DNA from: Deltaproteobacteria bacterium
GTDB taxonomy: Bacteria; Acidobacteriota; Thermoanaerobaculia; Multivoradales; JAHZIX01
DNA length: 64,000 bases
Direction of reading: 5' to 3'
Assembly: GCA_022601195.1 (NCBI GenBank)
Contig: JAHZIX010000034.1
Location: 18,504-82,503, forward strand
The notes under the pieces: model-generated
The model's database searches: none
The model's input: the letters and a program-made list of their open reading frames with translations, nothing else
Told to the model about the DNA's origin: nothing
Made by a program: the position numbers and the translations under genes
Part shown: in pieces, positions 50,308 through 60,778 of the stretch
How the letters are laid out: each line of letters begins with the position of its first letter
Position numbering within the stretch: the stretch's first letter is position 1

Positions 50308-50420
50308 GACGTCCTCCTAGTGGACTCTCGGAGTCAGGGGACCTCAGTGGATTCCAAACGACGACTGCCCACTTGATAGAAAGGTTTCGCAAAGAAGCCG
50401 CTTAGTCTCCTCGTCTGAGG

Positions 50421-50464
50421 AAAAGAAAAATAGGCCTCGAGGGGCAATAGGAAACCCCTCGAGC
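50421..50464 (-). terminator. Intrinsic terminator after rtcA
   Basis: The minus strand reads GCUCGAGGGG-UUUCCUAUUG-CCCCUCGAGGCC (9-bp perfect stem, nt 50436-50444 with 50455-50463), followed by UAUUUUUCUUUUCC. Confidence 0.6.
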
Positions 50465-50705
50465 CCTTATTAGGAGGATGGGGATGAGGGGCCTCGAACG
50501 GCTCCGCGGTTGAGAAGTTGCGGGCTGATCGAAGCCGGAAGGATCGAGGCACTCTAGAGAGCCCCGTTCGGTGCTTGGGAACGATGCTCTCAGAAGAGTG
50601 CTCTCTATATGGGTAGTTGCCGGCCAGAGAGAATTGTGGACACTCGAGCCGAAGTTTTCTTTCCACTACCTGCTTCCAGTCCTCTTTCGCTACATCCCTC
50701 AACTT

Positions 50706-51794
50706 TCAACCCAACACCACTCGGCACTGGGGAGGCGACAGCCGTTCTACGTGAATGGGTACGTCCAAGAATTGTTGGATGAGCCCAATCTGCGTGGTCG
50801 AGTGGCGAGACAGAGGGAGCGTCAGCATCGATCCCGCACCGGCCATGGCCATGGGAACGAGCAGTTGATCCGCCAGGTATTCACCAACGGGCACTCGAGC
50901 TTTGAGAAAGCGTTGCATGGCCTGCACTCCTCGCCCCACCACCGCTTCCGCCCGCACCCCCACCACCCCAAAACTAGAGATGACCTCGGTGACGACTTCC
51001 CCACCTAACTCCAGCAGGACGACATTGCCGGGACCGGCGACGTCGGCAAGCTCTTCCAAGTGAAGATTCTCCTGGGGCCAGCCGGTGCGTTTTTCCAAGT
51101 GCCGCAATTCACGCCTGCCGATGTGACCGGGAAGGTTTGCCACCAAAACCCGGCCTTGCCGACGGCCCACATCACCGACCTCCTCGAGGTCGATCCTGTT
51201 CAAGATTGGACTGGGCTCCACCTGTACCCGGATCTTGCCGCCACCGGCAGGATAGAAGCCGGCCCGCTCTAGCGTCGCCGAGACTCGGGGCCCCATGAGC
51301 TCCAAAGCCGGCAACAGCGATCTAGCAAGAAAGTCGAAGGGGGGAGCTGAGGGGTTGTGAGTCCCTCCCTCCAGCACCAACTCCGACGGGCCGCTGGCCA
51401 CCAGCAGGGCCGGCAATAACGCCTGGACCACCAAGGTCGTGCTGCCCGCGGTCCCCATGGCGTAGGAGTACCGCCCGGGAATCACTGGCCCCGGCTCGAA
51501 TAGGACTTCCGCAGATCCGAGATCGGCCCCCTGGACCTCGGCACGACAAATTTCCTGAGCGGCAACCAGAGCGGTCAGATGCTGCCGAAGGAGACCTGGT
51601 TTGCGGCGACCGGCGCGAATGTTGCGCACCCGAACCGCGTTTCCAGTCACCATGGAGAGAGCGAGAGAGGAGCGAAAGATCTGCCCGCCCCCCTCTCCCT
51701 CGGAACCATCTATTTCGATCCACTGCTGGGTCATCGCTTTCTCACTCGGCACGGCCTCAGCTGATACTCCTTTAGCTGGTACTGGCTCGGCCAA
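50706..51794 (-). CDS. rtcA: RNA 3'-terminal phosphate cyclase (TTG 51794, or more likely ATG 51734)
   Basis: IEIDGSEGEGGGQIFRSSLALSMVTG..VRNIRAGRRKPGLLRQHL is the RtcA N-terminal signature. The gene abuts the rtcB stop. Confidence 0.85.
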   Translation of the reverse strand: MAEPVPAKGVSAEAVPSEKAMTQQWIEIDGSEGEGGGQIFRSSLALSMVTGNAVRVRNIRAGRRKPGLLRQHLTALVAAQEICRAEVQGADLGSAEVLFEPGPVIPGRYSYAMGTAGSTTLVVQALLPALLVASGPSELVLEGGTHNPSAPPFDFLARSLLPALELMGPRVSATLERAGFYPAGGGKIRVQVEPSPILNRIDLEEVGDVGRRQGRVLVANLPGHIGRRELRHLEKRTGWPQENLHLEELADVAGPGNVVLLELGGEVVTEVISSFGVVGVRAEAVVGRGVQAMQRFLKARVPVGEYLADQLLVPMAMAGAGSMLTLPLSRHSTTQIGLIQQFLDVPIHVERLSPPQCRVVLG

Positions 51795-53342
51795 CTAATC
51801 ATCCGCCGGCGCCCCGTCCTTGATGACGAACCGAGCCTCCAGGCGGGCGACCTCCGAGGCGAGACCAGCGACTTTCACCGACCGTAAGACCTCATCGAAG
51901 TCCTTATAAGCAGCAGGAGCTTCGTCCCGCGGGTAGCGCCGGCAGTTGGTCAGGATGTCGCGCTCCTCGAAACTGCGATCGACTTCCTGCTGGTCGAGCT
52001 CTCGAAAGGCCCGACGTCGGCCAAGAGCCCTTCCGGCACCGTGGTTGACGCTGAAGCAAGACCTCTCGGCTCCCGCCTCCGCGGCCATCACGGCAGAGCC
52101 CGCTTGGGGATTCCCGGGAAGCAGAATCGGGTGCCCGGTTTCAGCAAACGGAGTCTCCTTCAACGCATGGTGACCCGCTGGAAAGGCTCGCGTCGCCCCT
52201 TTCCGGTGCACCCACATGGGCCGATTGTCGATCACTTCTTTGCGAGCGATGTTGTGGCTGATGAAGTACACCAGATGCCCCTGGACTCCGGGAATCACCT
52301 CCTGAAAGGCTTCCAGCACCAATGCGTTGATGAGCAGGTGGTTCACCGTCGCAAAGTTGGCACCCAGAGCCATGTCGTTGAGATAGGCATCCGCCTCCGG
52401 CGTCCCCAGAGGGGCATAGACCAGCTGCGGATCTCCTCCTGGAAGGGGAATATCCCAGTTGTCGAACTTCCCTTGCAGGGCCTTGAATTGCCCGGAAGCC
52501 AAGTCGTGACCGAAACCGCGAGACCCACAGTGGGACAGGAAGGCAGCATGGCCGTTCTCGAGGCCGAAGACTTTCGCCCGTTTGCGGGCGACGGAGTTTT
52601 CAGCCACTTTCACCACTTCACACTCACCGAAGTGATTCCCTCCACCGTAGGAACCGAGCTGGCTCATTTTTCCCCGAAAGCGACCTTCAGGAAAACGCGA
52701 GCGCAGCAGATCCAGCCGCTCTAACAGCGTCTCCACCGTTCCATCGTGCCCCTGGTGGGCCGAATCTTCACAGCGCAGGGCCCACTCCGGAGGAATTCCC
52801 AGCTGCTCACAAACCTCTTGGGAAGCCCCTTCCGTGACCACCTGGCTCCCCAGGTCCGGTAGCACCCGGCGAGCTTTCTTGACGTGGCGCTGCCCCCGAC
52901 CAGCACCGGTCGGCACCCGTTCGGCTATGGCATTGATCAGAGCCCGGCGCACCGGTCGATCCACCAGCTGGTCTGCCGGTAGGTCCAGCTGCAGCAAACT
53001 CATGGAGCATTTGATGTCCACCCCCACGGGGCCCGGGTAGATATGGCTCGGTGACGCCAGCACACAGCCTACGGGAGCCCCATAGCCACAGTGAGCATCG
53101 GGGTTGAGGACCAGCTCTTCCACCCCTGGGGCCAGGCGAGAGTTCTGTGCCTGCTGCAAACAGAGGTCATCGAAGCCCGCGCGGATCACCTCGGTACCAA
53201 TAACCGTAATGGGCTTCTTGGCGCCATCTTTCACCGGCAGCAGGGCTGTCGCCTCCCCGGTGGCGACAAAAGGACTGGCCGAGCTGTTTGCCGCTCGAAC
53301 ACTCGTGTTCTGAAAATCCGCTTTCTTGCTAGCCATCACCAA
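51795..53342 (-). CDS. rtcB: RNA-splicing ligase RtcB
   Basis: PDAHCGYGAPVG, GPVGVDIKC, GGGNHFGECEV, SHCGSRGFGH, NHGAGR: the RtcB metal- and GMP-binding motifs. Confidence 0.9.
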   Translation of the reverse strand: MVMASKKADFQNTSVRAANSSASPFVATGEATALLPVKDGAKKPITVIGTEVIRAGFDDLCLQQAQNSRLAPGVEELVLNPDAHCGYGAPVGCVLASPSHIYPGPVGVDIKCSMSLLQLDLPADQLVDRPVRRALINAIAERVPTGAGRGQRHVKKARRVLPDLGSQVVTEGASQEVCEQLGIPPEWALRCEDSAHQGHDGTVETLLERLDLLRSRFPEGRFRGKMSQLGSYGGGNHFGECEVVKVAENSVARKRAKVFGLENGHAAFLSHCGSRGFGHDLASGQFKALQGKFDNWDIPLPGGDPQLVYAPLGTPEADAYLNDMALGANFATVNHLLINALVLEAFQEVIPGVQGHLVYFISHNIARKEVIDNRPMWVHRKGATRAFPAGHHALKETPFAETGHPILLPGNPQAGSAVMAAEAGAERSCFSVNHGAGRALGRRRAFRELDQQEVDRSFEERDILTNCRRYPRDEAPAAYKDFDEVLRSVKVAGLASEVARLEARFVIKDGAPADD

Positions 53343-53403
53343 GCTCCCTCTATTCCTATGACTTCCTGGGTCAACTGAGTTCTATCAGCCCAAACGGCGG
53401 GCG

Positions 53404-53520
53404 CGACGACAAAAATCGAGAAACATTGCTCTACCCCTGAGCTACAGCCGGTTCTCCAAGGAGAGCACGACCGGCGGGATTCGAACCCGCGACCCATGTA
53501 TTTCCTCGGGCATTCGTCAC
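53404..53520 (-). ncRNA. Y RNA-like ncRNA module 1 (YrlA-type with tRNA-like T-arm, closed acceptor-like stem, D-arm)
   Basis: Minus strand, 5' to 3': GACGA-AUGCC-CGAGGAAAUACAUGG-GUC-GCGGGUUCGAAUCCCGC-..hairpin..-GCUCAGGGGUAGAGC-AAUGUUUCUCG-AUUUUUG-UCGUC. The terminal helix is GACGA/UCGUC. It lies between rsr and rtcB. Confidence 0.6.
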
Positions 53521-53566
53521 GCCCGCCGCTGCCGGCAGCACCGGCCTCCCGATGCTGCAAATGGAA

Positions 53567-53698
53567 GAAACGACGAAATTTTGTGAGACCTCTCTGTGCT
53601 CTACCTCTTGAGCTACGACGGGTTTACCTAACGGCATCCCACCGACGGGTTTCGAACCCGCAACCTCAGAGCCATGTAGTCCCACAGGCATTCGTTTC
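53567..53698 (-). ncRNA. Y RNA-like ncRNA module 2 (YrlA-type)
   Basis: Minus strand: GAAACGA-AUGCC-UGUGGGAC-UACAUGG..GCGGGUUCGAAACCCGU..GCUCAAGAGGUAGAGC..GUCUCACA-AAAUUUCG-UCGUUUC. The terminal helix is GAAACGA/UCGUUUC and the second helix is UGUGGGAC/GUCUCACA. Confidence 0.6.
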
Positions 53699-53770
53699 AT
53701 CCAACTCACACTCTTATCAATTCAACTTCTATTCGACAGATCCCGTTTCCAAAACAGAATCATGAAACAA

Positions 53771-53860
53771 CCGGCGACGAGATTCGGAGAGAGATCTCCG
53801 CCGCAGCGGGAGCGGATTTGAACCGCTCAATCACCATGTACTCTCTCCAGCATTCGCCGG
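53771..53860 (-). ncRNA. Y RNA-like ncRNA module 3 (shorter, T-arm-like hairpin only; YrlB-like)
   Basis: Minus strand: CCGGCGA-AUGC-UGGAGAGAG-UACAUGG..GAGCGGUUCAAAUCCGCUC..CUCUCUCCG-AAUCUCG-UCGCCGG. It shares the CGAAUGC and UACAUGG motifs with modules 1 and 2. Confidence 0.45.
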
Positions 53861-53889
53861 AAACGAAACCTTGTTCACCCACCAAGGGA

Positions 53890-55467
53890 TCAAGCCGCCG
53901 AAGCCGTCAATTCAATCTCTCGAATCTGCTTCACCCAGTAATCGGCGCTGGAAGCCTCCAGAAAACCGGCCAGCAGCTTGAAGACCTGATCTGAAAAGCC
54001 ACCGATGTTGAGCACGTCTTGCCGATCCGTTGCCTGGGTCGTCCCGTAAGGCTGAATATCGATGCAGACTAGCTTGGCCTTGGGACAGCGCTGTTTGAGT
54101 ACCGCCCATTGCCGCAAGGTCTCGGTAGCTCCTTGCCGGTAGGGACTACTGGAGTCCAACCAGGACTCGTTGTCCGAAACGTAGACCACCAGATCCGCAT
54201 GAACCCTCTTCCTGTTGAGATAGGTCAGCGGTGCTGAGCAGTTGGTTCCTCCCCCGTTGAGAGCCGCCAACTTGGAGGCATTGGTCATCACCGGGTCTCC
54301 GGCTTTCAGACGCACCGGCAGCACCTGGCTGCCAAAGGGGAGGATTCCCGTTTTCGGGTTGCGCCGCAGAATCGCCGCGGCTACCAACCCGGCCACATCC
54401 ACACACCGAACAGCCGTGGTGGAACCGCGGCGGTGGCCGGTCACCGGGGAGTGCATGGACCCTGAGGCATCCGGAAAAACCCAGATCTTGCCGGGCAGTT
54501 CCGGCACGTGACTCAAAGACAATTCCAATGCGATCCTCAAGGCATCCTGAATCTCCCCTGGTACCCCGGGCGCCAGCGCCCCATAGGCGGCCAGCAACTG
54601 GTAGGGAAAGACCCGAGATTGCGCGATAGCTTGCGGGTCCTGCAGCCGCTGAGCGATCAACGAAGCCATCCCATCCTCCTCATAGACTCCATGACGGTGA
54701 AACGTGTTCAGGTTCATTCGGGTCATCTGCCAGGATGCCCGGGCGGCAATCTCTACCCAAGCGCTGCGATCCAGGCTCAGGGAAGTGAGCATCTGAAACG
54801 GCACGTCGGGAGAGGGTCGACCGTGGGGATTCTTTTTGTAGGCTTCGAACTCCCGAACGACTTCCGGCAAGGCTGCCGCGTCGTGGACCCGGCCGAGGAG
54901 ATACCCGTAGAGGGCCCGCCGACTCGCCGTCGCCGGCTTCGGGTGCACCATCTTGACGATATCTACCAGGGACGGATCCTTGCCCACGGAAGCCGTGAAG
55001 ATCTGCTCGTCGGAACGCCCCGCCAACCAATCCCTGACCAAGGCCTTGGGCAAAGATCCCAGAGACTTGCGCCCGACAACCCCGGAACGCAGGATCTGTA
55101 CGAAGTTGCGCAGCATCCGAGGATGGTCCACCACTCTCGGGAAAGTGAGCTTCAACAGCTCCCGGTCGCGCACCGCCAGGACCGCTAAGAGGAGCGCCGG
55201 TAGGTCCTTCATGAAGGCCTGACGCCGCGCATAAATGGCGGTGCGGGCGATGATCTCCGGCTCCACCTGGCGGCAGAGCTCGAGAACCTTCGCTAGCTGC
55301 TGGTCAGCGTTCGCGTAGTAGGTTGAGGCGAGGCAACCGGTAGCCGCATATTGCGCCAAGGCGTGTTCAGGGGAAAGCTCATAGGCGACGCCTCCGGCTT
55401 CGTTGACGGCCTCCGCCTTGGGAAGCAGGCGTCCGATGATCGACCTGAAGAGTTCTTTACTTGCCAT
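53890..55467 (-). CDS. rsr: Ro60-related protein (TROVE + vWA domains)
   Basis: N-terminal TROVE-like EAVNEAGGVAYELSPEHALAQYAATGCLASTYYA..QL..V, and C-terminal vWA/MIDAS-like VFPDASGSM..GGGTNCSAPL..VYVSDNESW. It sits in the canonical position next to Y-RNA-like elements and rtcBA. Confidence 0.85.
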   Translation of the reverse strand: MASKELFRSIIGRLLPKAEAVNEAGGVAYELSPEHALAQYAATGCLASTYYANADQQLAKVLELCRQVEPEIIARTAIYARRQAFMKDLPALLLAVLAVRDRELLKLTFPRVVDHPRMLRNFVQILRSGVVGRKSLGSLPKALVRDWLAGRSDEQIFTASVGKDPSLVDIVKMVHPKPATASRRALYGYLLGRVHDAAALPEVVREFEAYKKNPHGRPSPDVPFQMLTSLSLDRSAWVEIAARASWQMTRMNLNTFHRHGVYEEDGMASLIAQRLQDPQAIAQSRVFPYQLLAAYGALAPGVPGEIQDALRIALELSLSHVPELPGKIWVFPDASGSMHSPVTGHRRGSTTAVRCVDVAGLVAAAILRRNPKTGILPFGSQVLPVRLKAGDPVMTNASKLAALNGGGTNCSAPLTYLNRKRVHADLVVYVSDNESWLDSSSPYRQGATETLRQWAVLKQRCPKAKLVCIDIQPYGTTQATDRQDVLNIGGFSDQVFKLLAGFLEASSADYWVKQIREIELTASAA

Positions 55468-55502: not shown

Positions 55503-55521
55503 ATTACATGAACCGTGCCAG
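55503..55521 (-). promoter_or_regulatory. Candidate sigma-54 promoter for rsr-Y RNA-rtcBA
   Basis: The minus strand reads CTGGCACGGTTCATGTAAT. The -24 element (CTGGCACG) is perfect. The -12 element is ATGT instead of TTGC, so it lacks the conserved GC. It lies ~40 nt upstream of the rsr ATG, and RtcR (a sigma-54 activator) is encoded divergently. Confidence 0.35.
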
Positions 55522-55665: not shown

Positions 55666-57303
55666 ATGACCTCTCACTCCTCAAGATCACAAATCGTTCT
55701 CGGCCTGATCGGGATAACGCTGGATTCAGGCAGTGGCCCGGAACGATGGGAGCGCTGGCGCCCGACAGTAGCCCTGTGCCAGCACGAGGATTTCGTCGTC
55801 GACCGTTTGGAGCTGCTGGTCCAGAAACGTCACCGACCCTTGGCGGAAAGCCTGAGAAGGGATATCGGCAATATCTCGCCGGAAACCGAGACCCGCATTC
55901 ACGAGTTGGAGTTCGACGACCCATGGGATTTCGAAGAGGTCTATGGAGCCCTGCACGACTTTGCCCTGTCCTACCCTTTTGAGCCAGAGGAGGAGGACTA
56001 CCTCCTGCACATCACCACGGGCACTCACGTAGCGCAGATCTGCCTCTTCCTGCTCGCCGAGTCTCGCCACTTCCCGGCTCGCCTGCTCCAAACCGGCCCG
56101 CCGCGCCGCAGCCGGGGGCATAGCGAACCGGGCACTCGACGCATCATCGACTTGGATCTGTCCCGCTATGACCGCATCGCGCAGCGTTTTCACCGCGAGC
56201 AAAGTGAGGCCCTCTCCTTCCTGAAGGCGGGTATCGAGACCCGCAACCCAGCCTTTAACCAGCTCATCGAGCGCATCGAGTACGTGGCTGTTCACTCCCA
56301 GGAACCGATCCTCCTAACGGGGCCGACGGGAGCCGGTAAGTCCCGCTTGGCCCAACGCATCTTCGAGCTGAAAAAGCAGCGACACCAGGTAGCTGGAGAG
56401 TTCGTGGAGGTGAACTGCGCCACCTTGCGAGGCGACGGTGCCATGTCGGCCCTCTTCGGCCACCGTCGAGGGGCCTTCACCGGCGCCCTACAAGATCGCC
56501 CGGGCCTCCTCCTCTCCGCCGACAAAGGAGTGCTCTTTCTCGACGAAATCGGCGAGTTGGGTTTGGACGAACAAGCCATGTTGTTGCGTGCGTTGGAGGA
56601 AAAGCGCTTCCTCCCGGTAGGAGCCGACCAGGAAGTAGGGAGTGAGTTCCAACTGCTCGCGGGTACCAATCGGCACCTCGCCAGCCGAGTTCGAGAAGGG
56701 CGTTTTCGAGACGACCTACTGGCCCGCATCGACCTCTGGACTTTTGAGCTTCCCGGGCTCCAAGCGAGACCGGAGGATATCGAGCCGAACCTGGATTACG
56801 AGCTGCAACGGTTCTCGGCGCGCTCTCAGGAGGTAGGCTCCAAGACTCACCACGCCTCCATGAACACGGAGGCACGACGACACTTCCTTCGCTTTGCCAC
56901 CAGTGGCGCGCCTTGGCACGGCAATTTTCGAGATCTCAACGCAGCGGTCATCCGCATGGGCACCTTGGCCCCCGGAGGCCGAGTCGACGCCGGGATCGTC
57001 CAAGAGGAGATAGCGCGCCTGGAGGCATCCTGGTCCCGAGGTGAAGCCGACACAGATAGCCACTTGCTCCAAGACCTGCTCGGTGCCGAGGGCCTCAACG
57101 GCCTCGATCGATTCGATCGGGTTCAGCTGGCCGAGGTCATTCGGGTCTGTCGCGCTTCACCGAGCCTTGCGGCGGCGGGACGAAAGCTCTTCGCCGTCTC
57201 CCGGAGCCGGAAGAAACAACCGAATGACGCCGACCGAATTCGCAAATATCTCGCCCGCTTCGGCCTCTCTTGGTCATCGGTTGCGCCGGACGGGAGTCCC
57301 TAG
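55666..57303 (+). CDS. rtcR: Sigma-54-dependent transcriptional activator RtcR (CARF-like N domain + AAA+ + HTH)
   Basis: AAA+ motifs ILLTGPTGAGKSRLAQRIF, GAFTGA, LFLDEIGELGLDEQAMLLRALEEKRFLPVG, and GNFRDL. The N-terminal ~180 aa are typical of the RtcR sensor domain. Divergent from rsr. Confidence 0.85.
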   Translation: MTSHSSRSQIVLGLIGITLDSGSGPERWERWRPTVALCQHEDFVVDRLELLVQKRHRPLAESLRRDIGNISPETETRIHELEFDDPWDFEEVYGALHDFALSYPFEPEEEDYLLHITTGTHVAQICLFLLAESRHFPARLLQTGPPRRSRGHSEPGTRRIIDLDLSRYDRIAQRFHREQSEALSFLKAGIETRNPAFNQLIERIEYVAVHSQEPILLTGPTGAGKSRLAQRIFELKKQRHQVAGEFVEVNCATLRGDGAMSALFGHRRGAFTGALQDRPGLLLSADKGVLFLDEIGELGLDEQAMLLRALEEKRFLPVGADQEVGSEFQLLAGTNRHLASRVREGRFRDDLLARIDLWTFELPGLQARPEDIEPNLDYELQRFSARSQEVGSKTHHASMNTEARRHFLRFATSGAPWHGNFRDLNAAVIRMGTLAPGGRVDAGIVQEEIARLEASWSRGEADTDSHLLQDLLGAEGLNGLDRFDRVQLAEVIRVCRASPSLAAAGRKLFAVSRSRKKQPNDADRIRKYLARFGLSWSSVAPDGSP

Positions 57304-57311
57304 GAAGCCCC

Positions 57312-60119
57312 TTAGGAAACTCCACCGTCCTGAAGTTGGAGCAGAGCGACAGCTGGCTCACGGGTCATAGAAGCTTCACTTCCGCGAGTGGCCTCGAGGA
57401 TAGGAACCGCAGCCATCAGTAGCTCTTTGGCTTCGCCTTCCCGCCCCAGCTCCAACAAGGCGAGCCCCAGCTGGCTCTCTCCCCAGGCCCTCTGCCAGGC
57501 ACCGACCTCATGGGCCTGGCGGATCACTTCCAGCCCTTTGCGTATTAGTGGCTCCGCCGCCCTTGCATCGCCCGAACGACGCAGGGACATCCCTTGTTTG
57601 AGCCAGCTGTAGCCGACCCGAGGATCGCCGTCTGGATAGACCCGCAACTGCTTTTCGGCGACCTCACCGTAGCGAGCCGCGGCTTGATCAAAGAATTTGC
57701 GGCCAAAGGCCAGGTTGGCCAAGTTGGCCTCGACCACGGTGGTCGCTATGTGATCCTCTCCAAACTGACGGAGAAAGATCTCCCGGGCTCGGTGGTAAAG
57801 CTCCTCGGCATCATCAAAGTCACCCTTCTCCTCGAGCACCAAGGCCAGATCGGAGAGGTTGGTGCCTGTGGATGGATCCTCCTCCCCCAGCGCCGCAACC
57901 TTCCGGGCCAAAGAGTCTCGGAGTATCTCTTCTGCCTCGTCCAGCTTGCCTCCCTCGAAAAGCACCAGCCCGAGATCATTCATGGCACTTGCCACTTCAT
58001 GATGGTGTTCCCCCTGGACCTTGCGGTGCCCTTCCACGGCTTTTCGAGCCTGCTCTTCCGCCAGGGGGAAATCCTCCCGTTGGCGACTGAGAATGGCGAG
58101 GCTGCCCCAGATGTCGGCGATCACCGGGTGAGAGCCGCCGAAGGTGGGCTCTCCCTGGGCCAGAGCCTTCTTCAAGGTGACTTCCGCTTCGTCCAAGCGA
58201 CCCAGATTCAAGAGCAGGAATCCCAGATCCGAGGTCGTCTCCAAGGCTTGTCGGCTGTAGTCCCCCACCGCCTCCTGGCGAATCTCCAGAGCCCGACGAT
58301 AGAGGCTCTCGGCTTCCTCCCAGCGACCCAGGTGGTGTACGACCTCAGCGAGTTGATGAAGGCTCTCGGCTACTTGTGGGTGGCGAGGCCCTAGGTGAGC
58401 TTCCCGTAAACCCAAAGCCTGGCGGTTGAGTTCCTCTGCCACAGCCAGATCCGACTCGGAATGGCGCAGAGAAGCGAGCAAGCTGAGGCTTTGGGCCAGC
58501 TCGCCCTGGCGCAGCGCGTTGAGATCTCCAGAAGATCCAGGGTTTCCGGATGTCACGGCCTGATCGAAAAGGCCCCCCGAGGGAAAAGCCTCAGCTTGTC
58601 TCAGGGAAACCGCCTCGACCAGCAACGAACCGGCCTGAGAGTAGAGACCGAGGCTGCGATGCACCCCGCCCAAGGTCTCCAGAAGACTGGCGCGAAGCTG
58701 CGGCTCCAGATCCCGATCTTGCTCCGCCCGCTCGACACCTCGATGCAGAAGCTCTTGCACCGTCAGCTGACGATTCGGCTGCTGCCTGGGGTCCGCAGAT
58801 TGGAACAGGCTGGCCAGAAAGGCGGAGACTTGCTGGGCCCTGGCAGTTTGTTGGGCAGCTACGGCTCGTTCCTGGGTCGCCACCCTTAGAGCCCGGGAGG
58901 TTCGCACCGCCAGCACCGTCATAGCGATGCCGAAAGCCACCAGAGCGACCAGCAACGCTGCTGCCAGGCGGTTGCGACGGGAGAACTTGCCAATGCGATA
59001 GAACCAGGTATCTCGCCTCGCCAGGACGGGCTCGTGCTCCAGGTGGCGCCGCAAATCCTCCGACATCTCTTCCACCGAGGCGTAACGCCGATCCGGCTCC
59101 TTGCGCAGCGCCTTGAGGACGATGCTATCCACATCCCCGGCGAGGTGACGGGCGTTACCGGGAGCCCCGTCGGCGATCAATGCCCGGCTCGGGCCACGAG
59201 GCTCCAACTCACACACCCGGCGTTCCGCTTCTCGGCGGGTAACTCCTTCCAAATCATAGGGGAGCTTCCCCGCTAGAAGCTCGTAGAGCAGGACTCCCAA
59301 CGAATACACATCGCTGGCCGTCGTCATGATCTCGCCTCGCACCTGCTCCGGGCTGGCGTAGGCCAAAGTCATGATCCGCAAAGCGGGTGCTGTGGCTCCC
59401 AGATCCGGCTCCGAGAGCACCGGATCAAGCCATTTGGCGATACCGAAGTCCAGCAGCTTAACCACTCCCTCTTCGGTCACCAGCACATTGCTGGGCTTGA
59501 TGTCGCGATGAATGATGAGGTTCTGATGAGCCCTGCGGATACCTTCACAGACAGCTCGAAACAGCTCCAAACGGGCCGTCAGTGAAAGCTGATAGCGGCG
59601 GCAATGCTGGTCGATAGCCAAGCCATCGATATATTCCAGGACGAAATAGGGCAGACCATCCTCCGTGGTGCCTCCATCCAGGATGCGCGCGATATGCGGA
59701 TGGTCGAGGCCAGCGAGAATTTGCCGCTCCTGGCGAAAGCGATGCAGAACCTCGGTCCCCAAGAGGCTCGACCGCAATACTTTGATCGCTACCTGTTGGT
59801 CATATTGATCGTCCGCGCGGACCGCCAAATAGACGTCGCTCATACCGCCGACACCGATCTTCCGCAGCAGCCGATAAACGCCAATGCGGTCCTCTCGGTC
59901 GAGCCCATTCGGATTCGCGACAAGATCTTCCTGGCGCAGCGCTTGGGGAGAAAAAACCGATTCTTCCTCCCCGTCCGCTGCCAACAAATCCAGCACTTGG
60001 GAAAGCAATCTCTGGTCGTCGCCACAAGAGCTCTCGAGAAAGCCCTCTATCTCTTGGGGAGCCAGCTCAACCGCTTCCGTGAACAGCTCGCAAACCCGCG
60101 CCCACCGTTCCGGGCTCAT
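57312..60119 (-). CDS. Ser/Thr protein kinase with TM segment and TPR array (935 aa); start reassigned to ATG 60119
   Basis: MSPERWARVCELF.. is the usual N terminus of this kinase class. Kinase motifs GVGGMSDVYLA, AIKVL, HRDIKPSNVLV, DFGIAK, YASPEQ, then a TM segment and TPR units. The ATG overlaps the sigma gene stop (ATGA). Confidence 0.85.
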   Translation of the reverse strand: MSPERWARVCELFTEAVELAPQEIEGFLESSCGDDQRLLSQVLDLLAADGEEESVFSPQALRQEDLVANPNGLDREDRIGVYRLLRKIGVGGMSDVYLAVRADDQYDQQVAIKVLRSSLLGTEVLHRFRQERQILAGLDHPHIARILDGGTTEDGLPYFVLEYIDGLAIDQHCRRYQLSLTARLELFRAVCEGIRRAHQNLIIHRDIKPSNVLVTEEGVVKLLDFGIAKWLDPVLSEPDLGATAPALRIMTLAYASPEQVRGEIMTTASDVYSLGVLLYELLAGKLPYDLEGVTRREAERRVCELEPRGPSRALIADGAPGNARHLAGDVDSIVLKALRKEPDRRYASVEEMSEDLRRHLEHEPVLARRDTWFYRIGKFSRRNRLAAALLVALVAFGIAMTVLAVRTSRALRVATQERAVAAQQTARAQQVSAFLASLFQSADPRQQPNRQLTVQELLHRGVERAEQDRDLEPQLRASLLETLGGVHRSLGLYSQAGSLLVEAVSLRQAEAFPSGGLFDQAVTSGNPGSSGDLNALRQGELAQSLSLLASLRHSESDLAVAEELNRQALGLREAHLGPRHPQVAESLHQLAEVVHHLGRWEEAESLYRRALEIRQEAVGDYSRQALETTSDLGFLLLNLGRLDEAEVTLKKALAQGEPTFGGSHPVIADIWGSLAILSRQREDFPLAEEQARKAVEGHRKVQGEHHHEVASAMNDLGLVLFEGGKLDEAEEILRDSLARKVAALGEEDPSTGTNLSDLALVLEEKGDFDDAEELYHRAREIFLRQFGEDHIATTVVEANLANLAFGRKFFDQAAARYGEVAEKQLRVYPDGDPRVGYSWLKQGMSLRRSGDARAAEPLIRKGLEVIRQAHEVGAWQRAWGESQLGLALLELGREGEAKELLMAAVPILEATRGSEASMTREPAVALLQLQDGGVS

Positions 60120-60778
60120 ATGGCCTCCGGAGAAGCTGCCCCCAGAGAAGCTGCCTCCGAGGAAGCCGTGGCCACTTCCCTTGGAGAGGGAATCTCCAGC
60201 TGCCGCTTGAGCCAGGCCTTGGCGAGGCGCCAATCCCGCTTGATGGTGATGCTCGACACTTCCAAGATTCCAGCAGCTTCTTCGACGGTAAAACCGCCGA
60301 AGAAACGCAGCTCGACGGTACGTGCCTGACGAGGTTGAAGAGCTGCCAAGCGCTCTAGAGCGAGGTCCAGAGCGAGGAGATCCTCTGAACGTTCCCTCGC
60401 CACCGTAAGGGCATCTTCCAGGGGTTCCCGGGACCGCTGGCCACCCCGCTTGGCAGCGCGTTTGGCCTGGGCATGCTTCACCAGAACGCGGCGCATCAGA
60501 GTCGCGGCGATGGCAAAGAAATGCTCCCGACTTTGCCATTCCACTCGGCTCTGTCGCGACAGGTGCAAATACGCCTCGTGAATCAACGCCGTCGGCTGCA
60601 GGGTGTGGTCGGAGGATTCTCGGCGCAGATAATTCTCCGCTTGCCGGTGTAGCTCTTGCCAAACCAGGGGTAGCAACTCTTCGAGAGCCTCGTCTTCGCC
60701 ACCCCCCCATTGCTGGAGCAACTCGGTCACAGCCCCTCTCCAGGAGGATTCTTCGGGAGGCGGAATCTCAGAGCTCAT
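60116..60778 (-). CDS. ECF sigma factor of the TIGR02999-like group, translationally coupled to the downstream kinase
   Basis: VTELLQQWGGGEDEALEELLPLVWQELHRQAENYLRRESSDHTLQPTALIHEAYLHL and HTH VELRFFGGFTVEEAAGILEVSSITIKRDWRLAKAWL. A paralogue of the sigma at 36542..37126. Confidence 0.8.
   Translation of the reverse strand: MSSEIPPPEESSWRGAVTELLQQWGGGEDEALEELLPLVWQELHRQAENYLRRESSDHTLQPTALIHEAYLHLSRQSRVEWQSREHFFAIAATLMRRVLVKHAQAKRAAKRGGQRSREPLEDALTVARERSEDLLALDLALERLAALQPRQARTVELRFFGGFTVEEAAGILEVSSITIKRDWRLAKAWLKRQLEIPSPREVATASSEAASLGAASPEAI

Follow-up and report, generated by a model that had tools for sequence, protein, structure and literature searches.

What is encoded in the 547-nt gap that separates rsr from rtcB in an uncultured, sponge-associated acidobacterium? 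The window, by which we mean the whole 64,000-nt stretch of sponge-metagenome DNA analysed here, had been given a first-pass annotation according to which this gap is flanked by rsr and rtcB, holds no credible coding sequence, and carries on its minus strand three tandem Y RNA-like modules, two resembling YrlA and one shorter. The flanks were borne out by matches to the TROVE, Ro60 vWA and RtcB (PF01139) families, with rtcA lying downstream of rtcB and rtcR divergent from the operon (Table 1). The order at the locus is thus rtcR (divergent), rsr, Y3, Y2, Y1, rtcB, rtcA, where Y1 to Y3 denote modules 1 to 3; rsr, rtcB and rtcA share one strand, and the Pfam matches identify rtcR as a sigma-54-dependent activator with an RtcR/CARF-type N-terminal domain. 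As analysed below, we regard it as very probable that the three modules are non-coding Y RNAs belonging to an RNA-repair operon under RtcR control, two of them ordinary YrlA RNAs and one a member of a conserved shorter subclass.

Table 1 Features of the rsr–rtcB locus, listed in the order rtcR to terminator (positions are those of the window)
Feature	Position	Strand	Evidence or relation
rtcR	55666-57303	+	Pfam PF06956 RtcR, E = 9e-83; PF00158 Sigma54_activat, E = 8e-46
Candidate sigma-54 promoter, TGGCACGGTTCATGT	55506-55520	-	39-53 nt upstream of the rsr ATG
rsr, Ro60 orthologue, 525 aa	53890-55467	-	Pfam TROVE (PF05731) and Ro60 vWA (PF25045)
Module 3, short Y RNA-like RNA	53766-53862	-	RF02553 36.2 bits (<69); own model R1 91.8 bits; covariation, 51 loci
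Module 2, full-length YrlA	53564-53698	-	RF02553 71.5 bits, E = 1.9e-14; own model R2 105 bits
Module 1, full-length YrlA	53400-53520	-	RF02553 72.2 bits, E = 1.2e-14; own model R2 89 bits
rtcB, RNA 3'-phosphate/2',3'-cyclic-phosphate ligase, 515 aa	51795-53342	-	Pfam PF01139 RtcB, E = 1.4e-101
rtcA, RNA 3'-terminal phosphate cyclase	50706-51794	-	Pfam PF01137 RTC, E = 8e-75; RTC_insert domain
Intrinsic-terminator-like hairpin	50436-50463	-	10-bp stem followed by a T run

Across the genome (8.0 Mb, 52 contigs), rsr is the sole TROVE gene detected, and the three modules, all adjacent and beside this single rsr, are the only Y-like elements; no others were found elsewhere in the genome, and a search with the short-form covariance model with filters off returned no fourth, weaker element between rtcB and rtcR. 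On the strand of rsr and 27-490 nt downstream of it, all three modules fall well inside the distance (<4 kb of a Ro60/Rsr gene) used as a criterion by Chen et al. 2014. Among sequencing runs listed as containing the stretch there is a single one, of DNA from a sponge metagenome and probably the origin of the assembly, and none of RNA. For rtcB itself, an ATG at 53336 is more likely, judging from the sequence, to be the true start than the TTG at 53342. On the far side of the locus, rtcR is adjoined by a 1132-aa minus-strand ORF (57312-60710) with a Ser/Thr protein kinase domain and many TPR repeats, which is unrelated to the Y RNA finding.

The three modules share one plan, and every motif quoted for them was recovered at the place given. 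In each, the 5' and 3' ends pair in a terminal helix (GACGA/UCGUC, GAAACGA/UCGUUUC and CCGGCGA/UCGCCGG in modules 1, 2 and 3, respectively), followed by CGAAUGC, a second helix, UACAUGG, a T-arm-like hairpin (GCGGG-UUCGAAU-CCCGC, GCGGG-UUCGAAA-CCCGU and GAGCGG-UUCAAAU-CCGCUC) and a closed hairpin. Both motifs are present in all three modules, as is the T-arm-like hairpin with its UUCGA/UUCAA loop, the stem of which covaries among relatives. The plan is extended by a D-arm-like hairpin (GCUCAGGGGUAGAGC, GCUCAAGAGGUAGAGC) in modules 1 and 2 only, as had been proposed; this element (GCUC...GG...GAGC) is able to dock on the T loop, and module 3 has none. The accompanying description of the arrangement held with a minor correction: the T arm does precede the D arm, but the anticodon arm, stated to be absent, is not missing as a whole, the second helix being the equivalent of the tRNA anticodon stem, with only the anticodon loop missing (10.1101/312249). 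Near the 5' end, inside the terminal stem, modules 1 and 3 carry the motif GNCGAAN0-1G (GACGAAUG and GGCGAAUG, respectively). In module 2 (AACGAAUG) the first G of the motif is replaced by A, with a compensating U on the 3' strand, so that an A-U pair takes the place of G-C; the same replacement is seen at the motif start in 3 of 12 aligned relatives.

Modules 1 and 2 are ordinary members of the YrlA family by Rfam's curated gathering threshold (69 bits for RF02553), and a scan of the whole window at curated thresholds returned exactly these two matches, both to YrlA. Their E-values, computed over the entire 64-kb window, place the scores far beyond chance (Table 1), and module 3 is, as had been proposed, a shorter relative. 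The two full-length copies lie in tandem and are 61% identical to each other. Single-sequence folding reproduced the proposed helices in all three modules. In module 2, every helix was recovered (basal stem, anticodon-stem equivalent, a longer V region, T arm, closed acceptor-like stem and D arm; z = -2.6 against shuffles). The fold of module 1 is marginal when taken alone (z = -1.6), so that this module owes its support to the covariance model and to covariation. The 41-nt minus-strand spacer that separates modules 2 and 1 (53523-53563) contains a GC-rich palindrome, GCUGCCGGCAGC, within GGCCGGUGCUGCCGGCAGCGGC, which may be a processing signal.

Covariation had been suggested as a check in related genomes. 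Genomes of the same family or order proved unusable for it: none of 60 carried a YrlA above threshold, and no Rsr was found in the sampled genomes of the host's own order or family. More distant rsr loci were therefore taken. Briefly, one covariance model (R1) was built from five short elements and a second (R2) from twelve full YrlAs, and both were searched over 89 sources, comprising the window and 88 related rsr loci. (A further alignment, A1, was discarded, as the YrlB-like element of locus L016 that it contained failed to align.) Among the twelve full YrlA sequences (5 helices, 28 pairs), 97% of cells were paired, compared to 40-53% when partners were slid, and compensatory changes were observed in 16 of the 28 pairs, including all seven pairs of the acceptor-like stem; none of 500 shuffles reached the observed values. 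The shuffle control ignores relatedness, for which the slid-partner control accounts, and the sequences span several phyla. All five YrlA helices were thus supported, and the best-conserved part of these RNAs is the basal stem together with CGAAUGC.

The last observation bears on whether the modules might instead be permuted or degenerate tRNA genes, that is, pseudo-tRNAs that are processed into real tRNAs or persist as relics of a tRNA array. Their T and D arms do fit the tRNA consensus, real tRNA arrays stand beside YrlAs at some related rsr loci, and the YrlA of Mycobacterium smegmatis is cut by RNase P and receives CCA (PMC4201824); furthermore, ARAGORN calls a tRNA-Arg (acg) at 53465-53548. 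Upon inspection, this call is an artefact: it was assembled from the GC-rich spacer hairpin and the module 1 T arm, the D arm being passed over. No model of the tRNA clan (CL00001) comes near threshold in the gap. The best of them, tRNA-Sec, needs 47 bits and reaches 22.5, in an alignment with numerous non-canonical pairs, so that the covariance models do not score these elements, as the first-pass annotation had allowed they might, as ordinary tRNA or pseudo-tRNA genes. None of the three modules has an anticodon loop, the acceptor-like stems are closed, and the basal stem with CGAAUGC has no tRNA counterpart, yet is what relatives conserve best. We assign the pseudo-tRNA reading a nearly negligible probability. 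As to coding sequences, ORFs of 74, 92 and 89 aa run across the gap. All three overlap the structured RNAs and have no Pfam family above threshold, their sole match (Cadherin_C_2, E = 0.013) being at chance level, which agrees with the stated lack of a credible coding sequence.

Within the Y RNA reading, module 3 requires separate treatment. It comprises a 7-bp basal stem, CGAAUGC, a 9-bp second helix, UACAUGG, a 6-bp T arm (loop UUCAAAU) and a closed 4-bp hairpin, CCGC-UGCG-GCGG. A permissive scan aligned it to the full-length YrlA model at 53768-53860 with 19 model positions deleted where the D arm would be, and its match to RF02553 has E = 3e-6 within a 651-nt region. Being below the YrlA threshold and without a D arm, it is not filed as YrlA, and YrlB (RF02565) gave no match in 53300-53950 at E <= 10. 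Its predicted fold is the most significant of the three (minimum free energy -43 kcal/mol, z = -3.4, none of 200 shuffles as good).

The low score of module 3 on the YrlA model and the 19-position deletion at the D arm are what one would expect of a decaying, non-functional YrlA copy, with modules 1 and 2 as the only functional RNAs of the array. However, 50 other rsr loci, among them loci of Acidobacteriota, Planctomycetota, Verrucomicrobiota and Myxococcota, have an RNA of this plan, likewise without a D arm. Across the resulting 51 sequences from 51 loci (3 helices, 22 pairs), 88% of cells were paired, compared to 41-57% with slid partners, and 18 of the 22 pairs showed compensatory changes, values again reached by none of 500 shuffles. 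The short forms also carry a signature of their own in the second helix, GGGAGUACAUGG, where full YrlAs have GGAACUACAUG. A closed hairpin of at least 4 bp directly follows the T arm in 48 of the 51; its sequence is unrelated between loci, and this segment, which is not alignable by sequence, was assessed by folding. Finally, the place by rsr is conserved: of the 44 loci that allowed an assessment, 35 have rsr, the short form and the first full YrlA in that order, as does the window, the short form following rsr at a median distance of 205 nt. Its own helix-2 signature, the recurrence at 50 loci and the covariation argue for a conserved subclass instead of a decayed copy; together with the conserved place and the stability of the module 3 fold relative to shuffles, the greatest of the three, they make decay very unlikely. 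The D-arm-less short form is conserved. In about a dozen of the short forms (for example L012:3174-3294, L061:4613-4734, L063:4670-4790 and L068:4921-5039, by locus label and position), an extra hairpin is present between UACAUGG and the T arm, a position equivalent to that of the long variable arm of class II tRNAs.

Nearly every related locus has several R1 or R2 matches just downstream of rsr, and arrays of two to six Y-like RNAs are common. These fall into three size classes (motif-based tallies per locus are crude and serve only to back up the covariance-model matches): a hairpin type of ~60-75 nt, consisting of basal stem and second helix only, with no tRNA parts; the short form of ~90-120 nt, better matched by R1 than by R2, in which a T arm is present and a D arm absent; and full YrlA, present in one to four copies per locus at 90-128 bits on R2. 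The window's array combines a short form with two full copies and is without the hairpin type. At related loci, hairpin RNAs directly after rsr (L037:4644-4712, L100:3547-3618, L013:1291-1356 on the minus strand, L016:3228-3302 and many others) have the basal stem GGCCGAAUGC...UUGUCGGCC found in the other Y-like RNAs, followed by the second helix; they are YrlB-like, and one gave a weak match to RF02565.

The module as a whole is patchily distributed, Rsr occurring in scattered genomes of several phyla. Among 401 sampled Acidobacteriota genomes, 13 had an Rsr match (E <= 1e-20), ten at 55-59% identity and three distant (26-29%), and the nearest Rsr proteins in a collection of species representatives, 55-62% identical, come from Acidobacteriota, Planctomycetota, Verrucomicrobiota, Myxococcota and other groups. 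Among 80 related loci, the neighbours within 3 kb of rsr include rtcR at 43, rtcB at 33 and rtcA at 13, mostly in the order of the window. At Pyrinomonadaceae loci, rsr is accompanied by Y RNAs, and the 3-kb flanks retrieved showed neither rtcR nor rtcB. (L015, a 'same phylum' match, and L061, from Pyrinomonadaceae, lie on one contig.) Four loci of Pyrinomonadaceae type (L011, L012, L014 and L015) have 4-9 real tRNA genes by rsr (Rfam tRNA, 49-73 bits), interleaved with YrlA at some of them; this is another genomic setting within the same Rsr clade.

How the three RNAs might be expressed can be read, with due caution, from the flanking signals. The candidate sigma-54 promoter upstream of rsr, whose function as the promoter of the operon we infer from its sequence, stands at the expected distance and has a perfect -24 box and a -12 box that reads TGT instead of TGC (TGGCAC-N5-xxGT, with GT in place of the -12 GC). 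Of 59 related loci, 29 have a TGGCA[CT] box in the 300 nt preceding rsr; at most of these it is 30-100 nt from the rsr start and a -12-type TGC/CGC box comes after it. Neither a terminator-like site between rsr and rtcB nor a same-strand promoter consensus inside the gap was found, and the hairpin downstream of rtcA (Table 1) probably ends the operon. Between the rtcA stop and this hairpin, ~240 nt of the minus strand (50464-50705) are unannotated; a 122-aa ORF at 50334-50702, without a Pfam match, runs across the hairpin and is probably not a gene.

For the transcripts, ends, processing and Rsr binding of the three modules, we infer the following course from these signals and from described systems. 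RtcR is switched on by 5' tRNA halves with a terminal 2',3'-cyclic phosphate (PMC7790460); once damaged tRNA fragments accumulate, it would activate the sigma-54 promoter, from which all three RNAs would be co-transcribed with rsr and rtcBA, with read-through of the gap as far as the terminator-like hairpin. The RNAs would then be excised from the polycistronic precursor and bind Rsr, tethering or gating it by analogy with Yrn1 and YrlA in Deinococcus and Salmonella. In the YrlA modules, the basal stem formed by the 5' and 3' ends bears the GNCGAA-type motif recognised by Ro60/Rsr and is topped by a circularly permuted tRNA mimic. This begins with the anticodon-stem equivalent and the V region, continues with the T arm and the closed acceptor-like stem, and ends in the D arm, whose loop has a GG that could dock on the T loop. 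Of these parts, module 3 retains the stem for Rsr binding, the T arm and the closed hairpin resembling an acceptor stem, with a 3-4 nt linker in the place of the D arm. Being without a D loop, it is predicted to be unable to form the T-loop/D-loop elbow of tRNA; it may adopt a simpler coaxial stack of T arm and acceptor-like hairpin, and would probably offer a different surface or meet a different partner, or simply gate Rsr.

The same arrangement could be read differently, with the array acting mainly in cis on the operon mRNA, either by uncoupling the expression of rsr from that of rtcBA through effects on processing or stability or as built-in tRNA-like decoys or substrates for the ligase and the toxins to which the operon responds, and not as trans-acting partners of Rsr. 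The RNAs are indeed flanked by two coding genes of the same operon and lack a promoter or terminator consensus of their own, and, as RtcR senses broken tRNAs (PMC7790460), a tRNA mimic could in principle feed its signal. We nevertheless hold a mainly cis-acting role to be extremely unlikely: such RNAs accumulate as discrete Rsr-bound species in every species tested (PMC4201824), and the Pyrinomonadaceae loci pair them with rsr where no rtcR or rtcB was found within 3 kb, which argues that the Y RNAs track rsr and not rtcBA.

The Y RNA reading of the gap is thus a correct reading of a known system and not of a new one. The plan of YrlA and its motif GNCGAAN0-1G have been described, as has the occurrence of several YrlAs per locus (PMC4201824), so that three RNAs here against two in Salmonella are unremarkable; Chen et al. 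2014 listed 355 YrlAs in 254 bacteria and 22 phages (PMC4201824). The only point that is mildly new is the existence of a conserved D-arm-less subclass that no Rfam family scores above threshold. It is conceivable, although we would not yet favour it, that the short form constitutes a distinct and widely conserved class of bacterial Y RNA, above the threshold of no Rfam family, standing between hairpin-type YrlB-like RNAs and YrlA, holding a fixed place by rsr, and recruiting a different Rsr partner than YrlA does. Current understanding is unchallenged by the locus, through which the hosts of the Rsr/Y RNA/RtcB RNA-repair module come to include a sponge-associated acidobacterium. A point of annotation follows for the rsr loci of this clade, where Rfam YrlA at its curated threshold finds only the full-length copies and misses both the conserved T-arm-only relative and the hairpin-type relative of ~70 nt. 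Taken together, hairpin type, short form and full YrlA make up a graded array after rsr which, if the short form binds Rsr, would lend itself, as a natural series, to dissecting the contribution of the tRNA elbow in YrlA.

Compared to the YrlA family (RF02553) as known from Salmonella Typhimurium and >250 other bacteria, modules 1 and 2 share the CGAA basal stem, the YUAY start of the V region, the permuted order of T arm, closed acceptor-like stem and D arm, and the site by rsr, in addition to scoring above the curated threshold. The crystal structure reveals YrlA as a mimic of tRNA, its T, acceptor-like and D elements forming a tRNA-like L shape (10.1101/312249). The GNCGAA motif with the terminal stem is the Rsr-binding site, and Y RNAs, processed from polycistronic precursors, tether Rsr to partners such as PNPase (PMC4201824; 10.1101/312249). 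Further hallmarks of YrlA are its stabilisation by bound Rsr and its modification by TruB and DusA. The locus differs in having two divergent tandem copies where Salmonella has one, in its longer and irregular acceptor-like stems, in the A that begins the motif of module 2, and in module 3, which is below threshold and without a D arm.

For module 3, the closest described analogues are the T-arm-only YrlB of M. smegmatis, which is encoded between YrlA and rsr and shares a single precursor (PMC4201824), and Yrn1 of D. radiodurans. Both bind Rsr via a terminal stem and have a T-arm-like hairpin without a complete D arm, and module 3, likened to them by description, has a similar plan; it differs in being clearly built on the YrlA plan (CGAAUGC, UACAUGG and the closed acceptor-like hairpin), and its relatives form a conserved group of their own. 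With the short, hairpin-type YrlB of Salmonella (RF02565), encoded between rsr and yrlA, module 3 shares its place as the first RNA after rsr and a length below that of YrlA. However, it has no match to RF02565, and the hairpin-type equivalent at related loci is a separate RNA of ~65-75 nt with no T arm. At the level of the operon, the -12 box of the candidate promoter here is sub-consensus, and one short and two full Y RNAs take the place of YrlB plus YrlA. RtcR here likewise combines a CARF-like RtcR domain with a sigma-54 interaction domain, and in genes, order and orientation the locus is identical to the Salmonella rsr-yrlBA-rtcBA operon with its divergent rtcR (Hughes et al. 2020, PMC7790460).
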